From positions 1-64,000 of IMG/VR virus record IMGVR_UViG_3300050139_000095: a stretch of DNA of 64,000 bases. One strand, written 5' to 3'. A program made the position numbers and the translations under genes. A model generated the notes under the pieces. It had not been told where the DNA came from. It searched no databases and saw only the letters and a program-made list of their open reading frames with translations. Source of the stretch: a virus. Shown one piece after another: positions 7,607-59,720 of this stretch (positions are counted from its first letter, which is position 1; each line of letters begins with the position of its first letter).

Positions 7607-7622
7607 CTCCAATTGATTGGAG
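7607..7622. repeat. Copy 1 of 16-bp palindrome family (CTCCAAT-TG-ATTGGAG)
   Basis: Read directly. Lies in the 20-nt gap between the convergent protease gene and the minus-strand gene, and is followed by AATT. Confidence 0.9.
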
Positions 7623-7624
7623 AA

Positions 7625-7939
7625 TTAGAGGGCGGCTTGTACTTCGGAAACGGTGTATTCGTCGCCGGTCAGTTCGACGTGATAACCAAGACCAGACCAA
7701 AACGTGACCAAGCAAGACTTGAAGATGAAATCGACGGCGGCCTTGAACTCGCCGCGCTTTGACAATTCTTGCTCATGATTCCAGGCCAAACGCATGGCCT
7801 CTTGGAAAGAGATCGGTGTCTGTTTTGGCGCTTCCTGGATCTTGTGGAACAAATCACTTTCGTCAGCCCGAGCGACGGAGAGCACAACCTCTTGCCCTTC
7901 AGCATCCAAGCCCACGAAGTCCTTGAAAATAACGTGCAT
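7625..7939 (-). CDS. Hypothetical protein, lone minus-strand gene in tail module
   Basis: Track ORF 7625-7981. An internal ATG (complement of 7937-7939) is preceded by GGAGG at correct spacing. 104 aa, no family recognised. Confidence 0.6.
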   Translation of the reverse strand: MHVIFKDFVGLDAEGQEVVLSVARADESDLFHKIQEAPKQTPISFQEAMRLAWNHEQELSKRGEFKAAVDFIFKSCLVTFWSGLGYHVELTGDEYTVSEVQAAL

Positions 7940-8051
7940 ATAAGTAACCTCCATTGCTATAATTTTATCACGGGGCAGCATTACAACCTGTAAATACTGT
8001 CTGTTTGTATCAACATGGATCGCGACACTGTTTCACTATGGGAGTCTCAAA

Positions 8052-8579
8052 ATGGATGAGAATTTATTGAAGAAAGTAATCGAAGCTGTCTCAAAGATTT
8101 CTCATCTTGATCCGGAGAACCGTGTTGTCGCTACGTCTCAAGCTGATACGACTATCAAGAGCCTCAACCGTGACCGCTGGAAAACGACAGATCCATTCGT
8201 GCAAGATGTGAAGGATGCGATGAAAACTCCAGCATTTGTCCAGGCTGTGCCTGAGAAAATGTTCCGCGATGCAGTCAAAGTTTTTAAGCCGCTTTTGCGC
8301 GGAATTAACGACGGTGAAATCAAGGCTGCCTACACCAAAAAAGAAGATGCACCGGCAGCGCCTGTGGGCACAACCACCACAACGGCAAATGTGGCTCCGT
8401 ATCCGATTCCTATTGGAACCGTTTTGCGCCCTGGTGATCGCAAGAAGAAGAAAAAGCACGAAGAGATGATTGACTGGTCCAGTCAATTTGCTCGGTCATT
8501 TGAGAACTTCAGCGAAGCCAAGACCAAAAATGGCTACGACCTTGCTCTAATTTATGAGGGGCTTAAAGTTTCCAAGTAG
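8052..8579 (+). CDS. Hypothetical protein
   Basis: 175-aa ORF with a GGGAG SD and a Lys-rich run (RKKKKKH). No family recognised. Confidence 0.6.
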   Translation: MDENLLKKVIEAVSKISHLDPENRVVATSQADTTIKSLNRDRWKTTDPFVQDVKDAMKTPAFVQAVPEKMFRDAVKVFKPLLRGINDGEIKAAYTKKEDAPAAPVGTTTTTANVAPYPIPIGTVLRPGDRKKKKKHEEMIDWSSQFARSFENFSEAKTKNGYDLALIYEGLKVSK

Positions 8580-8612
8580 ACAGGCTACGCAAAGCTTGCG
8601 TAACATTGCCCT

Positions 8613-8819
8613 ATGGAAGAAAAAATTGTTAATAATCCTCCAAAGGAAGATTCACCCAGGACACGCATGAATTTGTGGATGTCCAACGGCATGTTCAATT
8701 TCGTTCAAGAAATTGCATCACGCGACGGGCGCACCATGAGTGATGTCGTGCGTGAGGCTGTTCGCGATTACATGGCGAAAGATCGCAAGATTATGGGAGC
8801 GCCTTCAAGTGGAAGTTAA
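8613..8819 (+). CDS. Ribbon-helix-helix (CopG/Arc-like) protein
   Basis: TRMNLWMSNGMFNFVQEIASRDGRTMSDVVREAVRDYM fits the RHH strand-helix-helix pattern. Confidence 0.6.
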   Translation: MEEKIVNNPPKEDSPRTRMNLWMSNGMFNFVQEIASRDGRTMSDVVREAVRDYMAKDRKIMGAPSSGS

Positions 8820-9120
8820 TGTTGAGAAACAGTCATGGTTGCAGTTGACCAATCTGTTGAATTTCAACGACGTGATCTTTTGGGATCAGACGGAATATCC
8901 GGACATTCCGATCTCAGAAGACGATCAATACATCACACTCAATCAGCAACAGTCCAAGCGGATCGATTTGATTGCGTGGGATTTTTACGGTGACGTTAAT
9001 ATGTTTTGGGTGATCATGTTGGCAAACGACGTTGATTTACCCAACCAAATTTACGAGGGCATGGTGTTGAGGCTCCCTGCCCAAGATACGATTGATGATA
9101 TTTTAAAACCGCCAAAATAG
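8809..9120 (+). CDS. LysM-like tail protein (P2 gpX-like)
   Basis: RIDLIAWDFYGDVNMFWVIMLANDVDLPNQIYEGMVLRLP is a LysM/gpX-type motif. The start is uncertain (GTG at 8809 after GGGAG; track ORF opens at 8740). Confidence 0.6.
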   Translation: MEVNVEKQSWLQLTNLLNFNDVIFWDQTEYPDIPISEDDQYITLNQQQSKRIDLIAWDFYGDVNMFWVIMLANDVDLPNQIYEGMVLRLPAQDTIDDILKPPK

Positions 9121-9129
9121 GAGTTGTTT

Positions 9130-15517: not shown

Positions 15518-17472
15518 TGACGGCAACCAGTGACCTAAACAGAGTTCAGTTTATTGCAGAGGATTTTCAAACGTACCGCGACGAAGCGGATGCTTTCTTT
15601 GCCGCCAACTATCCCGATGCGTTTAACAATCTTTTGAATACTGATCTTGGTAACGCGCTGATGGATCAATTGGCTTTCGCCATGCAGTCTCTCGCGTTCA
15701 TGGTAAATCGCCGCGCATCCGAGTTATTTCTCTCCACGGCCCGTTTGAATAAATCAATCACGAAGCTTGCGCGGATGCTTGGATACCCTATAGCTCCTGC
15801 GGCTCCGGGCACGACCGACATGAGCATTTTCCTAACCGGCGCTCCTTATGCATTCCCAATCACATTTGCACGCGGGTTTGCTTTCCAAGGACCTGGCGAC
15901 ACCGTTTATGAATTTCGCAATGATACTCCGGTAATTTTTCCGGCAGGATCGGTCTCTGGGATTATTCCAGTGCGAGAAGGTCAGACCAAAACACTGACAT
16001 TCATTTCTTCAGGTCTTCAGAATCAGGAATTTCAAATTGCCGGAATCCCTGATGGCACCACGCTTTATTCAGATGGCTTGATCTTGACCGTTGATGGAGA
16101 GGAGTGGGCGCGTGTTCCGTTATTGACTTACACGGCTACAAATATTTTCGAGATCCTATTCACGGAAGATCCGCCTAAGCTGCGCTTCGGTGACGGCATC
16201 GCTGGGAATATTCCGCCCGAAGGTGCGCAGGTCGTTCTCAAGTATGTGGCAGGTAAAGGATTGCAAGGATCTGTTGGATCGAATCAATTCTCAGGGCCTC
16301 TGACTCAGATGGTTGTGAGTGGCCAAACAATTGCGATGACGCTTTCAAATCCTGTGGGAAATGTTGGCGCAGATCCTGAAGACATTCGCCATGTGAAATC
16401 TTTCGCTTCGTCATTTTTCAGAACTCAAAGTGCTGCGGTCATCAAGAGTGACTACGATACGATTGCCCAACTTCAGCCGGGAGTGGCAATTGCGGATGCG
16501 CAGATTATGCGCGGCGTGAGCGGTGACATCACTATCCAAGGATTCTTTGAAGACATTCTCCAAGGCGTCGATGACTTCGAGGCCGCGCAAGACCTGATGC
16601 TTTCAGCTTCCGTTTCCGGCAGTGAGTTATTGTCGGTCAGCGGAACTGATGGACTTATCATTGGCGGCCAGAATCTTTTGACGGTCACTGGAATAGGATT
16701 GTTGGGAGTTAGTGGAATAAACAAACTTGGTGTTAGTGGATCGACAGTGACTGGAACTTCATTCCTTGGAGTGTCAGGAACCAATACTCTAGGCGTGAAC
16801 AATGTGGCCGCACTATTCATCTCAGGAATACCCGGACTTGGCGTCATGGGAATTTCAAATCTTGGAATCACAAATTTCGGCGACATCCAATCATTGCTCA
16901 CAGCCGCGAGTGGATTGTTTAGCTCAAGCGTTAGTGGATTGATGGACTACTTGAGTCGAGTGTTCAGCGACACGTCGAAAGCAAACAATGTTCAGGTGGT
17001 AGTTTTGAGTGTTGATGCGAACAACAAATATATCGCTCCATCTCAAAGCACTCTTGATGGTGTCGAGGTCGCGCTGCAAACAATTGCCGACGCGGTGGTA
17101 ACTGTGACATCTGTTGATGGATCTGAAAAAATAGTTCCGACTGACATCATAATCGAAATTGGTATCAGTCCGACAGCGGTCGAGAACGATGTCGTTCAGC
17201 AAATTACAAACGCAATGATTCAAACTACGGCACCGCTTGGAATCATGGTGCGCAGAAAAGTTGGGTTGAATTTATTCTTGAGCGACATCAACGATGCCGT
17301 TCGCGCCAACACAAGTTCAAGTGATGTGATCTATATCAACGCGATCATCACTAATCCGACAGCCCTACTCGATGCAGATGGAAATTTGCTGATCAACAAA
17401 CAGCAAGTCATTCAGAACAACAACTTCAAAGTCCAGGTTGTGAAACGCTTCACCCGTGCAGAGGTATTCTAA
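15517..17472 (+). CDS. Baseplate J-like (gpJ/gp6) protein with internal repeat insertion
   Basis: TAATG overlap with the gpW-like gene; 651 aa. N-terminal FIAEDFQTYRDEADAFF...LGNALMDQLAF and a central region typical of Baseplate_J proteins. LGVSG-type octad repeats at about 16600-16890. Confidence 0.85.
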   Translation: MTATSDLNRVQFIAEDFQTYRDEADAFFAANYPDAFNNLLNTDLGNALMDQLAFAMQSLAFMVNRRASELFLSTARLNKSITKLARMLGYPIAPAAPGTTDMSIFLTGAPYAFPITFARGFAFQGPGDTVYEFRNDTPVIFPAGSVSGIIPVREGQTKTLTFISSGLQNQEFQIAGIPDGTTLYSDGLILTVDGEEWARVPLLTYTATNIFEILFTEDPPKLRFGDGIAGNIPPEGAQVVLKYVAGKGLQGSVGSNQFSGPLTQMVVSGQTIAMTLSNPVGNVGADPEDIRHVKSFASSFFRTQSAAVIKSDYDTIAQLQPGVAIADAQIMRGVSGDITIQGFFEDILQGVDDFEAAQDLMLSASVSGSELLSVSGTDGLIIGGQNLLTVTGIGLLGVSGINKLGVSGSTVTGTSFLGVSGTNTLGVNNVAALFISGIPGLGVMGISNLGITNFGDIQSLLTAASGLFSSSVSGLMDYLSRVFSDTSKANNVQVVVLSVDANNKYIAPSQSTLDGVEVALQTIADAVVTVTSVDGSEKIVPTDIIIEIGISPTAVENDVVQQITNAMIQTTAPLGIMVRRKVGLNLFLSDINDAVRANTSSSDVIYINAIITNPTALLDADGNLLINKQQVIQNNNFKVQVVKRFTRAEVF

Positions 17473-17912
17473 TGTCAACCACACCACTGACCAACATCCC
17501 AGTTCCCAGTGAGGATTTAGATCCTTATTTCGATAACTTCACGGCCATGGTGGATGATATGGACCTGAAGTTTTACGGAATCCTCCAATCAGTTGGAAAC
17601 ATTCTCGTGCCATCTCCTGGACTTTTCTGGGATGCGGCGAACGGGATCTTTAGTTGGACCGGCGATTTCATCATGCCGATCCTCTCCACGAATTTTCAAT
17701 TGAAGATCAGTTTTGGCCCTGACTTGGCGACAAGACAGTTCACCTTAAATGACGGTGATAAAGTCGTGATCGCGTCACCCGTGAGTGCTGGGGCCAACGT
17801 GACGGCGAATTTCTTGGTGGTTCCTGGGGCCTTGGCTTATCAGGCTGGCCTCTTCGTATTCGGTGCGCGGATTGGACAGAGGTTTTACTGCAATCTTCCG
17901 ACGACTTTTTAA
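17472..17912 (+). CDS. Hypothetical baseplate-module protein
   Basis: TAATG overlap with the gpJ-like gene; 146 aa. No family recognised. Confidence 0.55.
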   Translation: MSTTPLTNIPVPSEDLDPYFDNFTAMVDDMDLKFYGILQSVGNILVPSPGLFWDAANGIFSWTGDFIMPILSTNFQLKISFGPDLATRQFTLNDGDKVVIASPVSAGANVTANFLVVPGALAYQAGLFVFGARIGQRFYCNLPTTF

Positions 17913-17921
17913 GGGGTAAGT

Positions 17922-18845
17922 GTGGCAGGATTTGGTCGCTCAAAATTCGGTAAAGGTCCGTTCGGTAAATCCGACGTGGGTGGCGACCTAGTTGTAGACC
18001 TATTCCCTGAGAAGTACATCATTGATGCGGCTCCTGACGGCACCGATCCAATGGATGATCAAACCAATCCACTTCTGCAAGTTTTGAAAGTCTATGCAAA
18101 TTCAGTTTCAAAAAGGCGCGATCAAGTTGACTTGATGCCAACGCTGATCGATTACGAGAAAGCGCCTGATGCTATTCTCCTTTTGCTTGGCGATATGCTT
18201 GGTCTTGGGATCGATAAGAACGATCCTGAATTTTTAAAGAGATCATTTGTCGGTAACGCGAGCCAGTGGTTGCAGATCAAGGGAACTGTCAAAGGATATG
18301 AAGTTCGCGGCCTGGCCAGCGGGTTCGCTGTCGAAGTGGATAATTTTTGGCGCATCGCTGACGAATGGATTCCATTCATCCCGTTGTTTCACCAATTCCC
18401 TTTGAGGTCTGTGAATGCAGATCCAGGTGTGCCAAAAATAAACCATGTCGATGTGCCACCGGGAACTTATCCTGGCACTCCGACAGTCGAAGACGAGACG
18501 TATGCGAAGTCTTCATTCCTGCGACTTGTGTTCACAATCCCGCCGAATAGTCCACTTGTTGGAGCGATCACCGGCACGGGACCAATCGATCAAGGTTGCG
18601 TTGACTTCAATATTTTCCTGGACCTTGTGATAGATAAAATTAAAGATGTGACCGCGATTCATCATGAGGTTATTGCTCCGGAATTTTTGTCCGTGTTCAA
18701 CATCGACAACACCGTGGTAGCAAGAGCAAGTGTGTCCGAAGAACAATCAAATCCGTTGGTCATGGAAGCTTGCTACTTCGACATCAGCGGATTGCCTGAA
18801 GACGTTGAGCCTTTGGACGGATGTCTGAGGGCGTCAATGTCGTGA
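17922..18845 (+). CDS. Tail protein gpI-like (baseplate/fibre attachment)
   Basis: GTG start after AAGGGG. LLLLGDMLGLGIDKNDPEFLKRSFVGNASQWLQIKGTVKGYE resembles the gpI family core (W...KGT..G). Confidence 0.65.
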   Translation: MAGFGRSKFGKGPFGKSDVGGDLVVDLFPEKYIIDAAPDGTDPMDDQTNPLLQVLKVYANSVSKRRDQVDLMPTLIDYEKAPDAILLLLGDMLGLGIDKNDPEFLKRSFVGNASQWLQIKGTVKGYEVRGLASGFAVEVDNFWRIADEWIPFIPLFHQFPLRSVNADPGVPKINHVDVPPGTYPGTPTVEDETYAKSSFLRLVFTIPPNSPLVGAITGTGPIDQGCVDFNIFLDLVIDKIKDVTAIHHEVIAPEFLSVFNIDNTVVARASVSEEQSNPLVMEACYFDISGLPEDVEPLDGCLRASMS

Positions 18846-18942
18846 GTGAGTGGTTTTGTTTGATTATTGACGCTATTGAAATTTGCTCATTAAAATGAGT
18901 GAATATAATAAGCGTAAAATTGGCGGCAGGGGGATGTAAGTT

Positions 18943-19446
18943 ATGGCGAATACTGATCAGGCTATTATCACCGATGATGGTCACAATGCCTTAGCGCAAA
19001 GTTTTGGTGGACCTAGCGGTGGATTCTCATGGTCGTATGGTCAGTATTTCAAATTAGGCGTCGGCGGATTCATCATCGTCTCTGGCTGTATGCAACCGGC
19101 AAATCCAGATCCCACGCTTCATGACATCCAAGCTTCAACGAGTGGAATGTTTTGGTATCGAAAGACGTTCACTCCATCAGATTTTCTTTTCATTGCTCCG
19201 GGCGGGATTCAAGTCAGATGTTTCATGGACACCAATGAGGGCAATGGTATCTCTGGCTTGGAACCGGATACTCCGGATGATCAAGATGGTCCGAAGAACA
19301 GCATCACTCTTGGTGGAAATGCGCCGACCTATTTAGAGGTTGGAATTTTCGATCTTCAAGATGTGATGGTTGCTTACGGAACTTTCCCAGGAGAAGGCAA
19401 GCTGAGTACAAAAACATTGAACCATTTAGTGCTACTGACGTTCTGA
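18943..19446 (+). CDS. Tail-fibre-associated protein (fibre N-terminal-domain-like)
   Basis: GGGGGA SD. N-terminus (AIITDDGHNALAQSFGG...YFKLGVGG) resembles the ITnAG..ala N-terminal domain of P2-type fibres. It follows a 97-nt gap. Confidence 0.5.
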   Translation: MANTDQAIITDDGHNALAQSFGGPSGGFSWSYGQYFKLGVGGFIIVSGCMQPANPDPTLHDIQASTSGMFWYRKTFTPSDFLFIAPGGIQVRCFMDTNEGNGISGLEPDTPDDQDGPKNSITLGGNAPTYLEVGIFDLQDVMVAYGTFPGEGKLSTKTLNHLVLLTF

Positions 19447-19464
19447 CAGTAAACAGGAGACAAC

Positions 19465-35419: not shown

Positions 35420-35447
35420 GGAAGGGCTATCGTCTGGTAGCTCTTCC
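35420..35447 (+). terminator. Hairpin after membrane-protein gene (terminator-like, no U tract)
   Basis: 10-bp stem GGAAGGGCTA/TAGCTCTTCC (one G-U) with an 8-nt loop. The right arm overlaps the first 4 nt of palindrome copy 2. Confidence 0.35.
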
Positions 35448-35459
35448 AATCGATTGGAA
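35444..35459. repeat. Copy 2 of 16-bp palindrome family (TTCCAATCGATTGGAA, perfect)
   Basis: Read directly. Intergenic, 20 nt upstream of the ATG at 35479. Confidence 0.9.
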
Positions 35460-38806: not shown

Positions 38807-38857
38807 ACAGCATAGTGCGCGGGGACTTTGTTCCCTGCGCTTCACCTTGGGGGAAGC

Positions 38858-39046
38858 ATGAGCGCCGAAGAAATTGTACTTACGAAACAGGTGGAAGATA
38901 ACAAGTCCGATATTGTTTATATTCGCATTCCTGCGTATTTGAAAAAGTTCGTTGATCAAGTCGCGAAGGATCTTGGCGTTAAGCGTTCTGAAGCCATTCG
39001 CCGTTTGCTCGAATACGTCCGAGACAAAGGTGTGAAGATCGAATGA
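38858..39046 (+). CDS. Ribbon-helix-helix (CopG-like) protein
   Basis: ATG at 38858 after GGGGGAAG. IVYIRIPAYLKKFVDQVAKDLGVKRSEAIRRLLEYV is a classic RHH pattern. Confidence 0.65.
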   Translation: MSAEEIVLTKQVEDNKSDIVYIRIPAYLKKFVDQVAKDLGVKRSEAIRRLLEYVRDKGVKIE

Positions 39047-39099
39047 AAGTTTGTCCGTTAACCCAAGCCTGATACCATTTACAAGAGGGGCAATGGCGC

Positions 39100-39113
39100 T
39101 CCAATTGATTGGA
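39100..39113. repeat. Copy 3 of palindrome family (TCCAAT-TG-ATTGGA; 6+6 arms)
   Basis: Read directly. Intergenic, 7 nt upstream of the ATG at 39121, overlapping its GGAAGAGG SD. Confidence 0.85.
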
Positions 39114-39120
39114 AGAGGCG

Positions 39121-40770: not shown

Positions 40771-41027
40771 TCGTCAGCCCCAATAACATAACCGATGTCG
40801 CCACCAGGAGAAAATTCAGGAATGGTTTTGCGTGCGTGATTCGCAAGCTGTTCAGCCTGTGAGCCAGTAATTTCAACCAAGAATCGGCCTTGGTTGCCAC
40901 TGTATTTTTCTCGGTAGATAAACCACAAATCAGCACCGGCATCACCGAAGATTTCTTTGAACCGGCTTTCGCTGGAGCAATATAAAATCCTGAGCATTTC
41001 CTGGGCTAAACGACCAATGTTTAACAT
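40767..41027 (-). CDS. Hypothetical protein (minus-strand operon)
   Basis: 86 aa with a 7-nt ATGTTAA overlap with the PAPS-reductase-like gene. Confidence 0.55.
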   Translation of the reverse strand: MLNIGRLAQEMLRILYCSSESRFKEIFGDAGADLWFIYREKYSGNQGRFLVEITGSQAEQLANHARKTIPEFSPGGDIGYVIGADE

Positions 41028-41815
41028 GACGCTTTCTCCTTTTTTAAAATGTCTGCGATAGTTAGTTTTTGTTCTTCGCGAGTCTTAGTGGCTGGCTTGT
41101 AGCGGAACGTGTGCTTGATTTTTGATTCAGCTTCGACGTACTTAGCAACGATCTCTGGAGCGTGTTTAGCGGCCAAGGCGATCTCGTGGTTGCTTGAGAA
41201 AATGCAAATGGCGCACGATGCGCGGCTCACTCCCCATGCGTAGCAGGGATGTTTGGGGATGCCATTGGCTTCGATGATGGCCCACACTTCTTTTTCAGTG
41301 AGATCGAGGATGGGCGAGAACTTAACGACGGTGCGACCAACTTTTGAATTGTTCTCATCGGGACGCCATGCCTCAAGCTTTGAACGCTGTGAACTCTCTT
41401 CGCGGCGTTCACCGATCAAGACCAACACTTTGCCTTCGAGGGAGCGCACAAACTTGTCTATGGGGCCGACCTTGAGGCGTGATGTACACCAACGGTTTCC
41501 CATGTCGGGAAACTGATTCTCTTTAGCCTCGCCGGTCTTGCGATCCATGCGTGGGCTATTAAGGATCGACAGGAAGCCAAGCGGTGCGCCCTTCTTGTCC
41601 ACAGCTTCAACGATGTGAAGCGGAAGATCGAAATGCTTGCACTGTGCCTCAACCACCGGCACGGTCTCTTTCCAGTCGATGTCAATCTTGGCGTGAACAC
41701 ACACCAATTTTTCCTTGGGGAAATTATCAATCGCGTACTGCATCAGAGCGGCGGAATCTTTGCCGCCCGACACAGAGATCACGACATGATCTGGAGAGAA
41801 CTTTTTGGCGTTCAT
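41021..41815 (-). CDS. PAPS-reductase-family PP-loop ATP pyrophosphatase (DndC/IbrA-like)
   Basis: PP-loop VSGGKDSAA, RWCTSRLKVGPI and GERREESSQRS are hallmarks of the phosphoadenosine phosphosulfate reductase family. Confidence 0.85.
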   Translation of the reverse strand: MNAKKFSPDHVVISVSGGKDSAALMQYAIDNFPKEKLVCVHAKIDIDWKETVPVVEAQCKHFDLPLHIVEAVDKKGAPLGFLSILNSPRMDRKTGEAKENQFPDMGNRWCTSRLKVGPIDKFVRSLEGKVLVLIGERREESSQRSKLEAWRPDENNSKVGRTVVKFSPILDLTEKEVWAIIEANGIPKHPCYAWGVSRASCAICIFSSNHEIALAAKHAPEIVAKYVEAESKIKHTFRYKPATKTREEQKLTIADILKKEKASC

Positions 41816-42375: not shown

Positions 42376-42489
42376 GCAAAAAATACACGTTAATTCGATG
42401 GCTTAGATCGTCCCAAATGATTACAAAAGTAATCTTTAATTTTCAATTGGAACACCGATTTGCTATACTGATTGAGTTGATTGGTATAA

Positions 42490-42507
42490 AAAGGGGTTGT
42501 TATGAAG
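42490..42507 (+). repeat. 18-nt direct repeat, right copy (AAAGGGGTTGTTATGAAG)
   Basis: Identical to 39997-40014. Provides the SD and ATG of the gene at 42502. Confidence 0.9.
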
Positions 42508-42894: not shown

Positions 42895-42908
42895 ACAAAG
42901 GAGATTTT

Positions 42909-43115
42909 ATGGCCAAATCAATTTGGGCTTCGCATCCACAGCTTCCACCTGACGACAGGATCATAAAGTCTGGTGAGGCCACTATCAATGGCATACCGTT
43001 GTCCAAATATAAATTTAAGAACGAGGCGTTGATGACGCCTGAACAAATTGAATCTGTCGAGCAAGAGACTTCAGAAATGAACAAAATCAAAGATGAAACC
43101 AAGGGGGTTGAATAA
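42909..43115 (+). CDS. Hypothetical protein
   Basis: ATG at 42909 after GGAG (the track ORF opens at 42867 inside the upstream gene). 68 aa. Confidence 0.5.
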   Translation: MAKSIWASHPQLPPDDRIIKSGEATINGIPLSKYKFKNEALMTPEQIESVEQETSEMNKIKDETKGVE

Positions 43116-45783: not shown

Positions 45784-46104
45784 ATGGATATACTCATCTT
45801 TGTCGGAATTGTAATAGCAGGAATTGTAGTCATCGCAGGGGGAATCAAAATGTTCGGTTCAAAGAAACAAGAAGAAGTATCTGGTGTCATGACTGTCATT
45901 GGTGAAAACGAAGCTTTTTTTCATATTCCTTTCAAAGCTGAAGATATGTCCGTGGGCTTTGTTGACATCGAGCCGCCGCCTTCAGGTTGCAATCCTTCAC
46001 CCAACGATACGGTGGAGATCGAAACCCATCATCATGGCCGTCACGTTCGCGTGAGTTGGGCCGTTGGAGAGCCGCGTAAGATCAAATGGACCGCAAGTCG
46101 ATAG
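45784..46104 (+). CDS. Small membrane-anchored protein
   Basis: AAGGAG SD. N-terminal TM helix ILIFVGIVIAGIVVIAGGI. 106 aa. Confidence 0.55.
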   Translation: MDILIFVGIVIAGIVVIAGGIKMFGSKKQEEVSGVMTVIGENEAFFHIPFKAEDMSVGFVDIEPPPSGCNPSPNDTVEIETHHHGRHVRVSWAVGEPRKIKWTASR

Positions 46105-47024
46105 CCGTAGTTGGTTGGTACGACCATGGCAACCTTGGGGATGAAGCCTTCAAGGTTGCTTTCAAAAGTCTATTTCCTGAATGGTCATTCACTTTCTTCG
46201 ATAAGGTTCCAATCAATTGGAAAGAATTTGACGCGCTGTTTGTCGGCGGCGGATCTTTCCTCGACAAGCAATTGGATCGCATCAACGACGTGAAGATCCC
46301 TACGGCATTCATTGGCGTCGGCGTTGAGTCGAATACTCATCCCTACAACATTGAAGCCATGAAGAGGGCAAAGATCGTTGTAGCCCGTCACCCGAATCCA
46401 TACGGGTATCACGCGCCTGATCTGGTGTTCGCGAGCAACCTTCCGAAGTATCAATGTGAGCGGGACCAAATCACCGTGCTGGTAAATAATCACTTCAGCC
46501 CACATCCGAATTGCGAAGAGTGGAAACTGCGATGGTGGGATTGTTACGCCGTGGAGATGGCCCAGGCGCTCGACATCATGATCAAGAGAACGGGTTTACC
46601 GATTCACTTCTACCCAATGTGTTTGAATCCGCACGTCGATGACCGGCGAGCGGCGGCCTACATCATTGATCGAATGGTGAAAAAAGAGGCAACCGTTTTT
46701 CATTGCATAGATCCTTCGGAAAGAGATTTGGTTCGATTGATCGCCAGGTCCAAAGTCGTTGTCACCCAAAGGTTTCATGGGATGGTTTACTCTGCGCTCC
46801 TAGGGACTCGATTTGTTGGGATTAACGGCCATCAAAAGATGTCTAGTTTGGCGAAAGAACTGGATTGGAAAGCCATGAGTCCTTACTATGGTTTTACAGT
46901 GTCGTCGTTCTTAACAGCGATTGACAACTCTCATGACATCAGTGGTGTGACGAAATATTGCGAGAGGGCTAAGGCAACATGGCGAGATATGTCGGCGTTG
47001 ATAAGACGCGAATTATTTGGGTAA
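46086..47024 (+). CDS. Polysaccharide pyruvyl transferase family protein
   Basis: IAVVGWYDHGNLGDEAF N-terminal motif and VVVTQRFHGMVYSALLGTRFVGI...K C-terminal motif, both typical of the CsaB/WcaK-type family. Confidence 0.75.
   Translation: MDRKSIAVVGWYDHGNLGDEAFKVAFKSLFPEWSFTFFDKVPINWKEFDALFVGGGSFLDKQLDRINDVKIPTAFIGVGVESNTHPYNIEAMKRAKIVVARHPNPYGYHAPDLVFASNLPKYQCERDQITVLVNNHFSPHPNCEEWKLRWWDCYAVEMAQALDIMIKRTGLPIHFYPMCLNPHVDDRRAAAYIIDRMVKKEATVFHCIDPSERDLVRLIARSKVVVTQRFHGMVYSALLGTRFVGINGHQKMSSLAKELDWKAMSPYYGFTVSSFLTAIDNSHDISGVTKYCERAKATWRDMSALIRRELFG
46207..46222. repeat. Copy 4 of palindrome family (TTCCAATCAATTGGAA), intragenic
   Basis: Read directly. Lies inside the pyruvyltransferase ORF (codons V-P-I-N-W-K) and is identical to the copy at 57599. 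Confidence 0.9.
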
Positions 47025-48235: not shown

Positions 48236-48785
48236 TTATTCAAAGCCGGTAAATCTGGACATCGGTTCCGGCTTCGCTCCAACACCAAATTGCTATCACA
48301 TCGACATTCGCGAAGACCTACCAGAGATCGACATCATCTGCGACATCAGCAAAGAGGCTTTGCCGATCAAGGATGCAAGCGTGAATTGCATCATCTCCAA
48401 TCACTCTATCGAGCACGTTAAATGGCCTCTGGTGAAATTCGTTACAGATGAATGGTCGCGGGTTCTAATGAAGGACGGCGCGGCTCTGATCCGCACGCCA
48501 AACTTAGAGTTCATCATTGATCGTTACCTGAAGGCCAGAACGACCGACGAGTGGCCGGACGATGAGAAAAGAGCCATGGAAATTTTTGGCTCTATCACTC
48601 CAGCCGTGTGGGCGAACATCAAACTTTTTGCCGGTCAAGACTACGAGGGCAATGTTCACTACATGTGTTTTGATTTTAGAATGCTCGAAGCACTTCTTTT
48701 GAGAAGTGGATTTTCCCGCGTCCACCAAGTGGATCTTGGCGATGAGTTCTCGCCAGGCGAATTGCAAGTCAGAGCCGTAAAGTAG
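48210..48785 (+). CDS. Class I SAM-dependent methyltransferase
   Basis: GTG start after GAGG. Motif I-like LDIGSGFAP, then CIISNHSIEHV as in Methyltransf_11-type enzymes. Confidence 0.7.
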   Translation: MARILREIDYSKPVNLDIGSGFAPTPNCYHIDIREDLPEIDIICDISKEALPIKDASVNCIISNHSIEHVKWPLVKFVTDEWSRVLMKDGAALIRTPNLEFIIDRYLKARTTDEWPDDEKRAMEIFGSITPAVWANIKLFAGQDYEGNVHYMCFDFRMLEALLLRSGFSRVHQVDLGDEFSPGELQVRAVK

Positions 48786-48956: not shown

Positions 48957-48986
48957 GAATCAATGTTCTAACAAAAGGTGGTCAAG

Positions 48987-49181
48987 ATGAAGAAGAGAAA
49001 ATTGCGTACCAGGAAGCCCAGGATTTTTAAAAATCCAACCTTCCCGCAGATTGAAGTGGAAGATGGGCGCATTTGGATACGCAGCAAAGCCAACGCTCAC
49101 TGGGTGAAGATTCCAAAGAAACGCGCACGCTATGTCGCCAACCGTCTACTTCGCGCAGTTGACTATGTGGAGGGCCAATAA
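48987..49181 (+). CDS. Small basic hypothetical protein
   Basis: AAGGTGG SD before the ATG at 48987. 64 aa, Lys/Arg-rich. Confidence 0.55.
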   Translation: MKKRKLRTRKPRIFKNPTFPQIEVEDGRIWIRSKANAHWVKIPKKRARYVANRLLRAVDYVEGQ

Positions 49182-54318: not shown

Positions 54319-54421
54319 TCTCAATCTGAGTCTGATTACTTTCGTAATCTTTGACCTTTACAAGTTGTAATGCCTCATGAGACGATGGTTGAGTTCGCTA
54401 CTCGTTGCTTGGAGGTTTCAG

Positions 54422-55963
54422 TTGTCTTTCATACCCAGTAAGTTCCAACAAGGTATTTTTGACTTTATCGCAGGTGGTCAAGGGAACGCGATTATCGAAG
54501 CGGTTGCTGGTTCTGGAAAAACAACCACGATCCTCCAATCGCTTGGATTGATCGATCCTCGCAACGAAGTGGTATTCCTCGCGTTCAATACCAAGATCGC
54601 AAAAGAGTTGGCCGCAAAAGTTCCCGGCCACGTTAAGGCCATGACGTTCAACGGCCTTGGTCATCGCGCTTGTATGAAGGCTCTGGGTAACGTCGGCCTG
54701 AATGCTGACAAGCTGGCTGGCATTTGGTTCAAGATGCGCGAAGCCAATGAGATCAACGAGGGCGATTTCAAGTACATGTCCTATCCTGTTAAGCGCCTTG
54801 TGGATCTCGCACGCTCGGTTGGCATCGTGCCGAACAATCTCAAGGCTGAACTCAAGTTGATCAGCCTTACGGAAGACACCGACGAAATTTGGATGGCTTT
54901 GATCGAAGAGTACGAACTGACTCAAGGCACGCCGCAAATGAGCGATGACCTGATTTTTCAGGCCAACATGAAGCTTGTGAATTTTTCTCGCGAAGTTCTC
55001 CGCCGCGCCATCCTACTCCGTAGCGAGATTGATTTTGGCGATCAGCTTTATTTGCCGGTGATTTTTAATTGGCCATTCCCTCAATACGATTATGTGTTCG
55101 TCGATGAGGCACAGGATGTAAGCCTTATCCAGCGCATTATGCTATCGAAGTGTTTGAAGCAAAGCGGTCGCTTGGTTGCTGTGGGAGATCCCTACCAGGC
55201 TATCTACGGCTTCCGTGGTGCTGACTTTCACGCATTGTCCAACATCGCCAAGCTGTTCAACTGCAAATCGCTGCCGCTGTCCATCTGCTATCGTTGCGCA
55301 AAGAGCGTAGTCAGGGAAGCGCAGCGTGTGGTGCCTCACATTGAACACCATGAATCGTCACCTGAAGGTGAGATCGTGGAACTCGGTGACTATCGCAATG
55401 TGCAATTTGATTCAAAGTCCAATGACATGATCATTTGCCGCGCCAATGTTCCGTTGATCCGTTTGGCGTACAGCCTGATCGGTCGCAAGATCCCTTGCAA
55501 AATTGTTGGTCGCGACATTGGCAAGAACCTTTCCACGTTGATCCGTAAGTTCCGCGCTTACAGCATCGAAGACCTGGAAAATAAATTGAACGCCTGGAAG
55601 GATAAAGAGATCACCAAGTTGTTGTCCAAAGATCCCGACGCAGACACGTCCAAGATCGACGATAAGTTTGACGCCATTATGGTCTTTATTGATTCGTGCG
55701 GCGCGAACACAGTGGATGAGTTACTGCGCTCCATCGAGTCACTATTTGAAGACGGCAAGCGCGATGGCTACGTTACCCTTTCAACCATCCACAAAGCCAA
55801 GGGCCTTGAGGCTGACCGCGTGTACATCCTTGACCGTTGGATGCTCCCGAAGTTCGAGGGCGCAACCACTCGTGCGGGGCTAGATCAAAATACCAACTGT
55901 CTTTATGTTGCGATCACCAGAGCGAAAAAACAGTTGATGTACATCGAAACACCGAAGGGGTAG
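54422..55963 (+). CDS. UvrD/Rep/PcrA-like SF1 DNA helicase
   Basis: Walker A AVAGSGKTT, VFVDEAQD, GDPYQAIYGFRGA, TIHKAKGLEADRVYIL, LYVAITRAKKQL. Probable TTG start at 54422, 6 nt after GGAGG (the track ATG at 54377 lacks an SD). Confidence 0.9.
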   Translation: MSFIPSKFQQGIFDFIAGGQGNAIIEAVAGSGKTTTILQSLGLIDPRNEVVFLAFNTKIAKELAAKVPGHVKAMTFNGLGHRACMKALGNVGLNADKLAGIWFKMREANEINEGDFKYMSYPVKRLVDLARSVGIVPNNLKAELKLISLTEDTDEIWMALIEEYELTQGTPQMSDDLIFQANMKLVNFSREVLRRAILLRSEIDFGDQLYLPVIFNWPFPQYDYVFVDEAQDVSLIQRIMLSKCLKQSGRLVAVGDPYQAIYGFRGADFHALSNIAKLFNCKSLPLSICYRCAKSVVREAQRVVPHIEHHESSPEGEIVELGDYRNVQFDSKSNDMIICRANVPLIRLAYSLIGRKIPCKIVGRDIGKNLSTLIRKFRAYSIEDLENKLNAWKDKEITKLLSKDPDADTSKIDDKFDAIMVFIDSCGANTVDELLRSIESLFEDGKRDGYVTLSTIHKAKGLEADRVYILDRWMLPKFEGATTRAGLDQNTNCLYVAITRAKKQLMYIETPKG

Positions 55964-56150: not shown

Positions 56151-56497
56151 GACTGAAGCGAACGGCCCCATGTAAAGAATGTCCGTTCCGGCAGGAGTCA
56201 GTGCGCGGGTGGCTTGGCCCTTGGACCGTTGACACGATCCTTCAGCAAGTGCATTCAGACTTTAATCCATTGCCAGGACTCGCTTGCCATTTGGATGTGA
56301 AGGTTCAACAGAAGAAGGGCCTGGATGGTCAGGAGTTGTACGCCGAGAGTCATGTGTGTGTCGGCTCCCTTCATCATGCGAATGCATCTTGCAAGCGGTA
56401 CAGGCATCCAGAGTTGAGTGCCATGGCCGACAGACTTGGGTTGCTCGATACGATAATGGATTTGTTTAAATTTAGAAACCATCACGGTGGAAGATGA
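56147..56497 (+). CDS. Hypothetical Cys-containing protein (CKECPFR motif)
   Basis: 116 aa with an N-terminal APCKECPFRQES and later conserved-looking Cys/His. ATGA overlaps on both sides. Confidence 0.55.
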   Translation: MRLKRTAPCKECPFRQESVRGWLGPWTVDTILQQVHSDFNPLPGLACHLDVKVQQKKGLDGQELYAESHVCVGSLHHANASCKRYRHPELSAMADRLGLLDTIMDLFKFRNHHGGR

Positions 56498-56823
56498 AAA
56501 AGCTAAAGGCTGTGGCCGCACAAATGATTTCGATCAAGCTGCCAGCTTCATTCATTCAGGATTTGAAGACTCAGACGCAAAAACATTTGGTCAGTATCTC
56601 GACCATCGTGGACAATTGCCTGAAGAACAGCGGAGCCAATTGCCCGGTCTGCAAGCGGCGCTGGCCCAAAGAGACAGAGGCTAAACTGTCGTTTACGACA
56701 CGAGTTAACCCAAAGACGGTCGAAACAGCCGAGAATAAAGATATGCCTTCTCGATACTATTCGGCTGTCCTGTTGCATTCATTGGGCTATTGCCCCGTGT
56801 GTTGCCAGAAAAATACCAAGTAA
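56494..56823 (+). CDS. RHH-like N-terminus plus Cys4 zinc-binding C-terminus
   Basis: ISIKLPASFIQDLKTQTQKHLVSISTIVDNCL (RHH-like), followed by CPVC...CPVCC. Confidence 0.5.
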   Translation: MKKLKAVAAQMISIKLPASFIQDLKTQTQKHLVSISTIVDNCLKNSGANCPVCKRRWPKETEAKLSFTTRVNPKTVETAENKDMPSRYYSAVLLHSLGYCPVCCQKNTK

Positions 56824-56911: not shown

Positions 56912-57175
56912 ATGAAGATCAAAGGCAATGGCTTGGGAATTATGCTGACTGGCTATCGTAAAAAAGCCGGACTTACTCAGCATGATTTGGCCAAGGCTTT
57001 CAACTATTCAAGCCCACAGTTCGTGTCCAATTGGGAGCGCGGCATCTGCCGACCGCCCGTTAAGACATTGGCGAAGCTGACTCGTAAACTCAAGGTTCCG
57101 GTTAAAGAGATGAAGGGGTTGCTCATTGCTGAATATGGTAAGGAACTGGATCAAGTCTTTAACGGGCGAAGCTAA
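56912..57175 (+). CDS. XRE-family helix-turn-helix regulator (Cro/CI-type)
   Basis: AAGGGG SD. LTGYRKKAGLTQHDLAKAFNYSSPQFVSNWERG is a typical HTH_3 sequence. Confidence 0.8.
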   Translation: MKIKGNGLGIMLTGYRKKAGLTQHDLAKAFNYSSPQFVSNWERGICRPPVKTLAKLTRKLKVPVKEMKGLLIAEYGKELDQVFNGRS

Positions 57176-57179
57176 ACCA

Positions 57180-57596
57180 ATGGCGGATTCACATTACTTT
57201 GAAAAAAGAAAGCCTGAGTGGTTTGTCGGAGATACCATCAAAGCCTTCGGCCAGATTGGAAAAGTGGTTGGCTTCGGTGAGAAGAACGATGAGGAAACAA
57301 TCCTTGTGGAGTTCGAGTGCTTCGACGGTCTTAATGAGGCCACGATAAAACAGGAATTTTTATTCGACGGACGCCAAGAGGCTTGGCACAAGTATGCATC
57401 AGCGAAACTTTTCAAGCGCGTGAAGAGAACGATGACCAAGATCATTTATCCGGCCATCGCGAAGCGCGACGGGAAGTATTGTTGGGACTATCAGTTCTAT
57501 GAAAGCCAAGAACAGTTCGACGCCAAGGGCCGCAAGACCTATGAGAGTATAAAACTTTGCACCGAGATCCCAATCGAGATCGAAGTGGAAATCTAA
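57180..57596 (+). CDS. Hypothetical protein
   Basis: ATG at 57180 lies after the XRE stop (the track ORF opens at 57126). 138 aa. Confidence 0.6.
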   Translation: MADSHYFEKRKPEWFVGDTIKAFGQIGKVVGFGEKNDEETILVEFECFDGLNEATIKQEFLFDGRQEAWHKYASAKLFKRVKRTMTKIIYPAIAKRDGKYCWDYQFYESQEQFDAKGRKTYESIKLCTEIPIEIEVEI

Positions 57597-57598
57597 TT

Positions 57599-57614
57599 TT
57601 CCAATCAATTGGAA
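57599..57614. repeat. Copy 5 of palindrome family (TTCCAATCAATTGGAA)
   Basis: Read directly. Lies 3 nt after the stop at 57596. The 21-mer at 57595-57615 is the exact reverse complement of 59704-59724. Confidence 0.9.
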
Positions 57615-57620
57615 TAGTGT

Positions 57621-57641
57621 TGTGGATAAACTGGTGGATAA
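57621..57641 (-). promoter_or_regulatory. Two tandem DnaA-box-like 9-mers (TGTGGATAA, GGTGGATAA)
   Basis: 57621-57629 is the exact complement of the consensus TTATCCACA. 57633-57641 matches 8 of 9. Same orientation, 3-nt gap. Confidence 0.6.
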
Positions 57642-57678
57642 GTCGAGAATGTCCTGAGTCATAAATTTTTTGCTTGAT

Positions 57679-57708
57679 CGGCCCGGTTCTCGGGCCGTAT
57701 CTTCTTTC
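57679..57708 (+). terminator. Rho-independent terminator (plus strand)
   Basis: Stem CGGCCCG/CGGGCCG (7 bp, GC-rich) with a GTTCT loop, followed by the T-rich tail TATCTTCTTTC. Confidence 0.65.
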
Positions 57709-57729
57709 GGAGCCGGAACATTCTACTCG

Positions 57730-57757
57730 AAAAAAAACCCCACGTTTGCGCGTGAGG
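57730..57757 (-). terminator. Rho-independent terminator (minus strand) with no annotated minus-strand gene
   Basis: The minus-strand RNA reads CCUCACG-CGCAAA-CGUGGGG (7-bp stem including one G-U) followed by U8 (plus-strand A8 at 57730-57737). Confidence 0.6.
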
Positions 57758-57844
57758 CTTCAGTAGAAACTGTTCGCTTCGATTATCTTTACCAATCGTC
57801 GCGATTATTCCTGCCAAAACCTCTTTTTACCTGGAGTGGCATTG
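57730..57844 (-). ncRNA. Candidate ~115-nt leftward non-coding transcript in the ori-like region
   Basis: Inferred only. The minus-strand terminator lies at 57730-57757, with a possible minus-strand promoter of TTGCGC (57879-57874), a 17-nt spacer and TATAAA (57856-57851). No ORF longer than 21 codons lies on the minus strand here. Confidence 0.25.
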
Positions 57845-57899
57845 CCTACTTTTATATTCAATTCTCATTCTCAGCGCAAGCCAAATCACCATACATCTC

Positions 57900-57908
57900 G
57901 GTGGATAA
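57900..57908 (-). promoter_or_regulatory. Third DnaA-box-like 9-mer (GGTGGATAA)
   Basis: Matches 8 of 9 of the complement of TTATCCACA, in the same orientation as the tandem pair. Lies 64 nt upstream of the initiator ATG. Confidence 0.5.
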
Positions 57909-57971
57909 CTTCACTTTACATTTCAGAGTCTTACACAACATTGATCATGCATAACGTACCGGGGGGTATGA

Positions 57972-59144
57972 ATGGGGAATACGATTGCGATGGATCGCAA
58001 GCAACAAGCAATGGATCTCGGGTGGGTAAAGCTTCCGCACGCCCACATTGCGCAGTGGCCAACTAAACTCACGCCGCTGCAACAACTTGTGATCGCGCAC
58101 CTTTACGACTTCGTGAAGGACAACTTCAATGTTTGCCGTCCGTGTCAGGCCACCATCGCCAAGCGCACTGGCGTTGACCGAACCGCCATCAACAAGGCCA
58201 TCGCGAGTCTTTGCAAGCTTGGGATCTTGAAGAAGATCAGAACTCGCGGCGCTTGCTTATATTCGTTCACAGAGGCTTGGGTTGGTGAATTGACGCAAAC
58301 AGATGTGACGACAGTCACATCTAGATGTGACGACGTTCACATCTCTCCTATATTAGAAATACAGAACGAAGTTTTATGCAGACCGGAGTCCCCCCCAGCA
58401 AAACCAGAAATTTTAGAATTGGCTTTAGACAAAGGAAAAACAGGGGAAGGCCTCAAGAACGAAGACTCAGGAATACGCAAAGACCGTAGGGGATCGGGGA
58501 AACGCCGTCGCTATGCGCCGCCGCCAGGCCAACTGCCTTTGATGGTCAGCCTTTGTCAAGAAACCGAGAGTCCAGCCGAATTAGAACTAGACCAGTCATT
58601 ATGCACTGCATCTGATAACATTGGAGGAACGATGGATGATGAGTTGAGGTTTTCAAAGAGTAAGCAAATTGGTCCCCGCAAGATCAAGGTCAAAACTAGA
58701 CTTGGCCAAACGTCGAAGAAGGGGGACCGGCAAGAGCAAAAAGTTTTCGATAGCTTTTGCATGAGTGCCCAGGCAGAGGGCTATATCACGCCACTGTCGC
58801 TGCCACCGAATAGCCACATAGATCAACGGCTATCGGAGTACGGCGTGGATAATGTGTGTCAAGCGATTGAGTTTGGCGTGAAGAACTGGGGCCGCATCAA
58901 GGAAATTTTTCCGCGAGCGGTGTTCGCGCCGGAGCCAACGCTTCGCGAACTGTGTTTGCCGTGGGTGATGGAAGGATTGATTCCGCGTATGCGACATCAA
59001 CTGCCGGACACCACTAAGCAAACCGGATCGACAAAAGCGCAACCCGATTCTAGGTCTGATAAGCAGAGGGAAATTGACGAAGCGAATAAAGCGCGATTGA
59101 GAAAGCAGATGGAAGAGAACAAGAAAAAATATTCGGCGGGGTAA
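57972..59144 (+). CDS. Replication initiator-like protein with N-terminal winged-helix/HTH
   Basis: GGGGGG SD. ATIAKRTGVDRTAINKAIASLCKLGILKKI is an HTH typical of phage O/DnaD-type initiators. Lies between the ori-like region and the helicase genes. Confidence 0.65.
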   Translation: MGNTIAMDRKQQAMDLGWVKLPHAHIAQWPTKLTPLQQLVIAHLYDFVKDNFNVCRPCQATIAKRTGVDRTAINKAIASLCKLGILKKIRTRGACLYSFTEAWVGELTQTDVTTVTSRCDDVHISPILEIQNEVLCRPESPPAKPEILELALDKGKTGEGLKNEDSGIRKDRRGSGKRRRYAPPPGQLPLMVSLCQETESPAELELDQSLCTASDNIGGTMDDELRFSKSKQIGPRKIKVKTRLGQTSKKGDRQEQKVFDSFCMSAQAEGYITPLSLPPNSHIDQRLSEYGVDNVCQAIEFGVKNWGRIKEIFPRAVFAPEPTLRELCLPWVMEGLIPRMRHQLPDTTKQTGSTKAQPDSRSDKQREIDEANKARLRKQMEENKKKYSAG

Positions 59145-59714
59145 ATGGAAAACGATTTGGTGAAGGTAAATGATTTTTTGATGAGTGAGGCAAACATCCC
59201 GTTCGCCTACCGCACTGGTTTGCCGTCGATGGACGATATTCCAAACGTCGGCATGATCAAAAAATACTTCCAACCAATTTACGGTTATGAGTCTGTTCCG
59301 GCAGCGAATATTTATATTCACTGCAAGGACTACAAGTTCGCATGTCAGGTGGCAGCCAAGGTGGTCATGGGTTTCCTGGCGCGTAGGACAGTTTGTTATT
59401 GTTCTTATTCGACACTTGTAAAGGGAATTGTTGAGCGAAGCGGTAGGGACGAAGCTGTAAGTGGTTGGGATCTTTTGACTGTTCCCAGAGTTCTGGCGCT
59501 TTTTAAATTTGGTCAAGAGCCGATGAATGATTTTGGAAAATCAATTACGGCTGTGACACAAGTTCTGGCCTACCGTGAGAGCGTGGGAATGCCTACAGTA
59601 TTTTCAAGTGATGTAGATCCAGAGGAACTTATGTCAAACGGGCAGAGGTTCCCAAAGCCGCTTGCAGATTTGATTTTAGACAATTGCTTAATCGTTGATG
59701 TTAATTCCAATTGA
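59145..59714 (+). CDS. Hypothetical protein in helicase-loader position
   Basis: Starts 1 nt after the initiator stop. 189 aa with no Walker A seen; the loader role is inferred from gene order only. Confidence 0.4.
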   Translation: MENDLVKVNDFLMSEANIPFAYRTGLPSMDDIPNVGMIKKYFQPIYGYESVPAANIYIHCKDYKFACQVAAKVVMGFLARRTVCYCSYSTLVKGIVERSGRDEAVSGWDLLTVPRVLALFKFGQEPMNDFGKSITAVTQVLAYRESVGMPTVFSSDVDPEELMSNGQRFPKPLADLILDNCLIVDVNSN

Positions 59715-59720
59715 TTGGAA
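59705..59720. repeat. Copy 6 of palindrome family (TTCCAATTGATTGGAA)
   Basis: Read directly. It contains the TGA stop (59712-59714) of the upstream gene and ends 7 nt before the helicase ATG. Confidence 0.9.

Follow-up and report, generated by a model that had tools for sequence, protein, structure and literature searches.

What is a 14-bp palindrome with invariant arms doing both at gene junctions and deep inside genes of a phage genome, and what reads it? The question is raised by positions 1 to 64,000 of the IMG/VR virus record IMGVR_UViG_3300050139_000095 (this whole 64,000-nucleotide stretch is called the window throughout), in which an initial annotation had pointed out six copies of the palindrome, too many to be due to chance. 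The exact pattern TCCAATNNATTGGA indeed occurs six times in the window against 0.01 expected, and 0 of 100 dinucleotide-preserving shuffles gave six. The matches are at 7608, 35445, 39100, 46208, 57600 and 59706, and there are none besides. The six palindromes are thus confirmed as real copies of a 14-bp site, TCCAATY-RATTGGA, consisting of two abutting inverted 7-bp half-sites that each read TCCAATY. We hold with moderate confidence that this motif would be the recognition site of a phage-encoded, homodimeric, sequence-specific protein that binds double-stranded DNA (dsDNA) and acts genome-wide. The copies in the window, and two further exact copies outside it on the same contig, are as follows (all in window coordinates):

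7607..7622, copy 1, CTCCAATTGATTGGAG, centre TG; between the convergent S8 peptidase gene (6492..7604) and minus-strand gene 7625..7981, 3 nt past the stop of each.
35444..35459, copy 2, TTCCAATCGATTGGAA, centre CG; in a 70-nt intergenic spacer, with the ATG at 35479 19 nt downstream.
39099..39114, copy 3, CTCCAATTGATTGGAA, centre TG; the ATG at 39121 is 6 nt downstream and a small ribbon-helix-helix (RHH)-like gene (38828..39046, weak RHH_1 match) lies upstream.
46207..46222, copy 4, TTCCAATCAATTGGAA, centre CA; inside the pyruvyl-transferase (PS_pyruv_trans) gene at +122, in codons for V-P-I-N-W-K.
57599..57614, copy 5, TTCCAATCAATTGGAA, centre CA; at the left edge of a 375-bp intergenic region; gene 57135..57596 stops 3 nt before it.
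59705..59720, copy 6, TTCCAATTGATTGGAA, centre TG; holds the TGA stop of the helicase-loader-like gene 59145..59714, with the DnaB start 6 nt downstream.
17583..17598 (match at 17584), degenerate copy CTCCAATCAGTTGGAA with one mismatch, A9 to G; inside gene 17472..17912.
54533..54548 (match at 54534), degenerate copy CTCCAATCGCTTGGAT with one mismatch; inside a UvrD-type helicase gene.
-6206, exact copy; inside the gene after gp13.
68622, exact copy; inside the ResIII/DEAD helicase gene.

Central dinucleotides and gene contexts agree with those first reported. The accompanying statement that no other full copy exists holds for the exact pattern in the window and does not extend to the one-mismatch copies at 17584 and 54534, both of which have counterparts in related loci (designated here by L and a number): the A-to-G variant of the former is found again at L140:19435, L140:20780 and L271:18047, and the variant of the latter at L271:7503 and in L265 and L273. 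Outside the palindromes the half-site is not clearly enriched (TCCAAT 17 vs 14 expected, ATTGGA 30 vs 19), and sharing among the window copies stops at 14–16 bp. Because the half-site is not clearly enriched and no flanks are shared, the palindrome itself is the unit and not a piece of a longer repeat. A miniature inverted-repeat transposable element (MITE)- or repetitive extragenic palindromic (REP)-like mobile repeat, or a T4-type promoter early stem-loop (PeSL) cassette, is ruled out, since flanks are shared neither within the genome nor across the clade; this answers the concern, voiced with the first description, that the motif might belong to a longer mobile element.

The window is part of a 160,233-bp contig (Logan SRR35931007_7427; run SRR35931007), which was read from window coordinate -8706 to 72877 (81.6 kb, about half of the genome), and its source is an uncultured T4-like myovirus whose replication module is of the lambda type. 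Window and flank encode a Gp23-type capsid protein, gp13, the tail sheath, two gp19 tube proteins, a T4-type baseplate and a tape-measure-like protein, alongside a lambdoid-style replication module (O-like initiator, loader-like protein, DnaB and DnaG-type primase) and numerous sugar-metabolism genes. Megablast against known phages gave no match, Rfam and tRNA scans of the window returned nothing, and the motif corresponds to no Rfam family. About 58 sheath homologs with 53–87% identity were identified on metagenomic contigs of up to 154 kb, together with a dozen DnaB homologs with 35–81% identity, and relatives were compared through the tail-module and replication-module loci surrounding these two genes.

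Analysis of the relatives, a search that the initial annotation had suggested, revealed 42 copies of the exact TCCAAT-YR-ATTGGA in 13 related motif-bearing loci (286 kb) against approximately 0.007 expected from base composition. These loci range from 32 to 51% GC, and their sheath and DnaB proteins are 58–87% and 35–81% identical to the window proteins, respectively. The 12 outer positions are invariant in 42 of 42 sites, and the centre is always YR (CA 21, TG 13, CG 5 and TA 3, with CA and TG read on the transcribed strand); the palindrome shows no strand bias. Beyond the 14 bp the flanks are random across the clade, apart from a mild T preference at positions -1 to -3, and the base favoured at position -1 depends on the genome: the window genome prefers T, L143 G and L140 A (nominal p 0.002–0.03).

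Many copies keep their place in the gene order. A copy directly follows the 152-aa gene that closes the sheath-tube operon in the window genome (copy 1), L130/L137, L136 and L132; another marks the end of the loader gene before DnaB (copy 6, L138, L140, L143, L265, L272), and a third is located just past the primase stop (L140, L143). Within genes, a copy that precedes the end of the ResIII helicase gene by about 300 nt is shared by the window genome (68622), L265 and L143, with one mismatch in L140 and L271, and the pyruvyl transferase gene carries a copy at +122/+128 in the window genome (copy 4) and L142. At copy 1 a subtilase (Peptidase_S8) gene, 6492-7604, stands between the 153-aa tube-module gene and the palindrome; L130/L137, L136 and L132 have no gene there, which suggests that it was inserted into the tail module.

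The helicase-gene copy shows synonymous constraint. Five genomes share its codons, xTC CAA TTR rTT GGA, while adjoining codons for Ala, Thr, Gly, Phe, Asn and Pro vary freely. L270 encodes the same Q-L-V-G with CAG CTT GTC, and its synonymous positions have therefore drifted; the motif-less L144 reads ACC CAG CTC TTG GCG, so that codons and amino acids both differ. Copies can also move within a gene: in L142 the loader gene carries its copy at +120 rather than at the C-terminus, and in L143 the pyruvyl transferase gene carries it at +751 rather than at +122. L270, whose DnaB is 42% identical, has no canonical copy and instead possesses five to seven copies of GTCCAA-NCGN-WTGGAC (Poisson p ~1e-11 for the core), four of which read GTCCAA...ATGGAC and are oriented with transcription; the variant is mildly asymmetric. 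The variant sites on this contig (Logan SRR32481641_4558) are at:

L270:1015
L270:2612
L270:7426
L270:12065
L270:15397
L270:19801

The motif is absent from a 149-kb IMG/VR genome (L131, L144 and L275; 48 kb read) and from L125, L134 and L135. A search of these motif-less relatives for substitute palindromes gave none that was convincing, CAAAG-N4-CTTTG, present three times in L125, being borderline. Taken across the clade, the copies show, at the level of sequence, purifying selection on the DNA itself, conserved positions, turnover on a local scale and, in one lineage, a concerted variant.

Placement is biased toward gene junctions. Even with deliberately generous gene calls that used the longest open reading frames (ORFs), 13 of the 42 sites are not fully inside an ORF, compared with 5.2% non-coding sequence (p ~1e-7), and half of them (21 of 42) have a stop codon no more than 50 nt away, compared with 12.8% of random positions. 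The remainder are deep in genes, so the earlier description of the copies as sitting mostly at module junctions is right for about half of them. Junction copies overlap stop codons, ribosome-binding sites or the last bases before starts of co-directional genes; about a quarter of sites end 4–20 nt upstream of the next start codon, and three genomes have the palindrome centred on the loader gene's TGA stop. Overall there is roughly one copy every 3–10 kb, with about one per 5 kb in the replication and early regions and one per 7–20 kb in the tail regions; the number of sites per genome is estimated at 15–40.

The form of the motif argues for a protein on duplex DNA. Invariance of the outer 12 bases, the YR centre, the fixed length, the lack of strand bias and the concerted variation together point to a symmetric dimer bound to dsDNA, and an invariant sequence whose centre is only ever YR would suit such a dimer sitting on a deformable central step. 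An RNA hairpin would conserve its loop and let the stem covary. The initial proposal of a dimeric DNA-binding-protein site is consequently retained as the probable one, given that sequence and not mere pairing is conserved, that the centre is YR, that synonymous codons are frozen and that the variant is concerted. We infer protein binding, phage encoding of the binder and an effect of binding. The dimer would sit mainly in very short spacers of long co-directional operons, for example before the initiator, before DnaB, after the primase and where the sheath-tube operon ends. Once bound, it could hinder the passage of RNA polymerase or load a sliding or spreading complex (a clamp), and the outcome might be genome-wide damping or timing of expression, or the compaction and organization of replicating DNA. 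Intragenic copies and turnover within genes suggest that approximate position or spacing matters more than exact placement relative to promoters.

Which protein would read the site? Tentatively, and with something short of even confidence, we look to another phage-encoded helix-turn-helix (HTH) or RHH regulator outside the sequence seen. A ParB-like protein of the clade, the one concrete candidate to emerge, is a weaker choice whose role as binder we consider possible and rather doubtful. This 254-aa ParB/Noc-family protein, with its ParB_N domain (Pfam E 3.5e-17) and a GEHRWKA motif of the GxxRxxA type, is encoded in relatives some 4 kb further downstream than the ResIII helicase gene, and it matches solved ParB/Noc structures at ~1e-10. 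The genes, all in the recombination module, are:

L273:15958-16722, in a locus with the canonical motif.
L275:12631-13389, in the motif-less genome.
L270:21181-end, in the locus with the variant motif; only 23 aa are readable.

In L273 the gene is followed by one for a pentapeptide-repeat protein (L273:16809-17390). The putative HTH region of the L275 protein differs.

The RHH and XRE proteins of the window, which had been put forward as partners, do not fit this role. The XRE protein (56912..57175) was rejected as binder on account of having a homolog in only one related locus, L142, and the clade-wide RHH protein (8613..8819) on account of being equally present in motif-less relatives, where much of its beta-strand is kept (RxN[LIV]W in most members). 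The RHH/zinc protein 56494..56823 and the PD-(D/E)XK nuclease were set aside for a similar reason, the former also occurring in motif-less L144 and the latter in the motif-less genome. Rejected too was the 189-aa protein, in whose gene a site is always present: in alignments it resembles a degenerate DnaC-like loader, it has a remote homolog in the motif-less genome, and it gave no Pfam or PHROG match to a DNA-binding family. The RHH gene at 8613-8819 encodes a 68-aa Arc/CopG-like protein, lies in the baseplate module and is kept in every relative examined.

The O-like initiator (57972..59144) was likewise discarded, as it has genome-specific tandem iterons of its own inside its gene, in contrast to the invariant TCCAAT motif:

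58301-58344, window, two tandem 22-bp palindromes (AGATGTGACGACAGTCACATCT / ...GACGTTCACATCT) inside the O-like initiator gene.
L140:7187-7248, three repeats of another sequence at the same place.
L142:8575-8637, repeats of another sequence at the same place.
L143:8072-8124, repeats of another sequence at the same place.

The tandem palindromes look like a lambda-type origin with co-evolving iteron specificity. Because the iterons differ in each genome, initiator specificity varies while the TCCAAT motif does not, and replication-origin iterons are ruled out as an explanation for a motif that is single-copy, dispersed and invariant. The name "ori-like region" formerly given to the surroundings of copy 5 is misplaced in so far as the lambda-like iterons are a different repeat and lie in the O-like gene. 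The 375-bp region that has copy 5 at its left edge (57597-57971, upstream of the initiator gene) does hold three DnaA-box-like 9-mers, all pointing the same way, and an A-run with a hairpin (about 57731-57765) at which minus-strand transcripts would end. The 9-mers are:

57621, TGTGGATAA.
57633, GGTGGATAA.
57900, GGTGGATAA.

Several results weigh against a phage-encoded dimeric reader and must be set beside the evidence for it. None of the candidate proteins examined in the window qualifies as binder. A homolog of the ParB-like protein, 36% identical, occupies the same place in the motif-less genome (L275; 48 kb examined), and tblastn of -8706..72877 (81.6 kb) gave no ParB-like gene in the window genome, the syntenic position being just beyond. 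Neither ParA nor an integrase nor another plasmid or temperate sign was seen in the examined regions: the gene lists of the examined loci, which are parts of genomes, contain no ParA/CbiA-type Pfam match, and the 81.6 kb of the window genome no integrase. A sigma-70 or T4-late (TATAAATA) promoter at a fixed distance beside the sites was not found either, giving no sign of a classical operator function, and all that we infer about function comes from position. Finally, the RNA of a palindrome is identical from either strand, so that recognition at the RNA level keeps a low probability.

A reader supplied by the host, either a conserved nucleoid-associated protein or a global regulator exploited by the phages, would explain one feature easily: the motif is invariant though phage proteins have diverged to 35–60% identity, as expected from a slowly evolving partner, and no phage candidate examined has been identified as the binder. 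We nevertheless regard a host protein as improbable. A scan for TCCAATCAATTGGA in 185,579 prokaryotic species (one genome each) returned scattered single matches with no dominant taxon, and its multi-copy matches were mobile-element-like contigs. The GC range of 32–51% implies diverse hosts, and the concerted variant of L270 and the total absence of the motif from closely syntenic relatives fit a phage-borne specificity better. A literature search for the motif strings gave no match in a relevant context, only primers and a synthetic VanR operator array; the exact-motif scan of IMG/VR gave only single chance matches among the matches listed.

The multi-copy exceptions in the species scan were L182, a relative binned in a metagenome-assembled genome (MAG), and L180 and L206, two unrelated loci that look mobile and hold two or three copies. 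L206 (NVWB01000046.1, MAG labelled Blastopirellula sp.; GC 44%) has three exact copies in 2.3 kb, at L206:1707, 2508 and 4030, flanking two genes for HTH proteins of about 280 aa, one of which is Hin/resolvase-type at its C-terminus. No similarity between its proteins and those of the phage clade was detected, and IMG/VR yielded no relative of the locus; its HTH proteins, having no homolog in the clade or IMG/VR, were dropped as a lead to the binder. The L180 locus (WQVM01000004.1, Bacillota MAG) is a prophage adjoining a serine recombinase and an XRE repressor, and both of its copies, L180:7234 GTCCAATCGATTGGAC and L180:7921 GTCCAATCAATTGGAC, are in one early gene and encode VQSIGQ. The pair may reflect a repeat at the protein level or else the same DNA site put to an unrelated use.

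An element acting in RNA is about equally improbable. The transcribed palindrome would form a hairpin of 5–6 bp with a UYRA loop and serve in processing, stability or translational control of polycistronic mRNA, for example by occluding the GGAG/GGAA of its 3' arm shortly before start codons. Placement lends this some support, as in the quarter of sites that end 4–20 nt before a start codon the 3' arm can serve as Shine-Dalgarno sequence; the minus-strand RNA at copy 1 folds into an 11-bp hairpin (dG -11.7, z -3.2) with a U-rich tail behind it. With a dG of -4.4 kcal/mol, however, the bare hairpin is as weak as those of shuffled sequences; it has two G-C pairs among its 5–6, is never extended by pairing of the flanks and is not followed by a T run. 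An invariant stem with a variable loop is the opposite of what recognition of an RNA hairpin typically produces; moreover, sites deep inside genes are conserved, and some change position within a gene. The initial annotation had already judged the palindrome a poor terminator, rightly so: an intrinsic terminator is ruled out by the weak AT-rich stem and the lack of a U tract, with only copy 1 on the minus strand qualifying weakly, and the canonical GC-rich terminator after copy 5 (57679-57697, plus strand) means that the phage uses ordinary terminators.

We give a similarly low probability to a nuclease or recombinase site, or a recombination hotspot, that would seed recombination-dependent replication or cassette exchange between co-infecting relatives. 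Accessory genes do adjoin sites: the S8 peptidase gene before copy 1, a 429-aa gene after L140:8681, a 117-aa gene and an SNF2 helicase gene before L142:13299, and a 2-oxoglutarate (2OG) oxygenase gene that occupies the place of the post-primase site of L140 and L143. HNH endonuclease genes, inteins and the PD-(D/E)XK nuclease are also present. This association may, however, be trivial because intergenic spacers tolerate both sites and insertions. A site cleaved by the phage's own enzyme would be expected to be selected against, not kept by synonymous constraint, and no candidate enzyme tracks the motif, the PD-(D/E)XK gene included.

Inteins or homing-endonuclease domains were observed to break the ResIII and SNF2 helicase genes of relatives (L265:8456-10738; L140:17280-19745; L144:3761-6895 and 17415-19817). 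The DnaB of L265 is oversized (760 aa vs 424), with no intein domain detected in it. In the window genome the helicase genes are uninterrupted and a free-standing HNH gene is located at 39420-39998.

Just as improbable is a true centromere (strict parS) in a plasmid-like or carrier-state episome, with the dispersed palindromes as ParB/ParA partition sites like N15 IR1-4: the 7+7 palindrome with its variable central dinucleotide resembles N15 SopB sites, a ParB/Noc-family gene exists in the clade and lambdoid-type early genes (XRE, O-like initiator, RusA and Gp157) occur in the genome or its relatives, but no ParA was found in any examined locus, 15–40 sites per genome far exceed partition needs, the virion module is T4-like, and the ParB gene persists in a motif-less relative.

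The preferred reading of a dimeric protein acting genome-wide can be taken one step further, into a scenario that we consider rather unlikely as a whole. A lytic T4-like lineage would use a ParB/Noc-family CTPase clamp with 15–40 loading sites across its genome as a KorB-like long-range regulator; the clamp would silence, insulate or compact the phage's own DNA, the sites would be kept even in essential genes by synonymous-site selection, and the L270 variant would be a natural specificity switch. If the ParB-like protein does read the motif, CTP-clamp regulation would extend from plasmids and chromosomes to a T4-like phage genome; if the reader is a repressor, a palindromic stoperator-like system would exist outside actinobacteriophages. 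Whichever protein it is, the motif is a clean, strongly selected cis-element, and it marks a regulatory or organizational layer in a large uncultured clade of 135–160-kb T4-like phages. With an invariant dispersed motif, a natural variant (L270) and null genomes, phylogenetic profiling of complete genomes should make it possible to pin down the binder.

Other features of these genomes deserve brief mention. Just upstream of start codons, the intergenic stretches 36923-36982, 54319-54376 and 48960-49000 have in common a TTTGAC(A/C)C...TTTACAA...GTTGTAA-like pattern, which may be a phage promoter class. A minus-strand block, 40522-43360, interrupts the otherwise plus-strand genome and includes a gene of the PAPS-reductase/PP-loop family (41021..41815). 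Sugar and modification genes, which may act on DNA or on a surface glycan, are found in several places: a 2OG-Fe(II) oxygenase adjoins the primase and is followed by a 396-aa protein and a GT2+GT9 glycosyltransferase, and there are also an epimerase, a pyruvyl transferase, a GT1/GT4 glycosyltransferase, a methyltransferase and, in the neck region, RmlA/C/D-like genes. Their positions are:

62089-62877, window, together with L274:10786-13778.
36983-38017, window.
46086-48785, window.
L120:7188-9378.

Dispersed operator- or parS-like sites are already known in phages such as L5/Bxb1 and N15, and what is new, on good support, is this motif in an unstudied T4-like clade. The analogies drawn at the outset, with parS/KorB sites and with stoperators, remain the best ones. 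Phage N15 carries the SopB (ParB-family) sites IR1-IR4, dispersed single palindromes of the form GTGCGACC-NN-GGTCGCAC with a variable central dinucleotide (PMC7205306). Together with the related 16-bp F sopC site they resemble the present motif as short perfect palindromes with a variable centre that are scattered in single copies. The N15 sites are bound by a dimeric HTH ParB-family protein, whereas here the ParB-like protein of the clade is a candidate only; N15 moreover has four sites, a SopA/SopB operon and the life of a linear, temperate plasmid-prophage, unlike the estimated 15–40 sites, the T4-like morphogenesis and the lack of any ParA seen here.

Two ParB-CTPase clamps that serve regulation rather than partition provide another parallel. 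Noc nucleates on the 16-bp Noc-binding sites (NBS) of the Bacillus chromosome (PMC8429893), and the KorB OB sites of RK2 are loading sites from which the clamp acts at a distance (PMC11790492). Both are 13–16-bp palindromes dispersed over a replicon, some promoter-proximal and others distal or intragenic, and TCCAATY-RATTGGA likewise has the make-up of a ParB-family site, a 13–16-bp palindrome of abutting half-sites conserved throughout. The site sequences are unrelated, however, and in the phage clade no KorA-like partner is known and the CTPase is a candidate only.

In the cluster A mycobacteriophages L5 and Bxb1, 20–30 copies of a 13-bp stoperator are bound by a repressor that blocks elongation; they lie mostly outside promoters, many of them at gene junctions, and the motif varies with repressor specificity between lineages (PMC6550527). 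Tens of dispersed copies, many at junctions and outside promoters, are what we find here as well. Stoperators are asymmetric, monomer-bound and oriented with transcription, in contrast to a palindrome without orientation bias, and stoperator systems have a repressor, whereas here none was found and the sequence seen holds no evidence of lysogeny. Two further temperate phages with identified repressors stand on either side of this difference: the phiC31 repressor binds palindromic conserved inverted repeats (CIRs) that are present in many, largely intergenic copies, and the C1 operators of P1 are dispersed over the genome and asymmetric. Among such dispersed sites, the motif would stand apart if its reader were a ParB-CTPase clamp.

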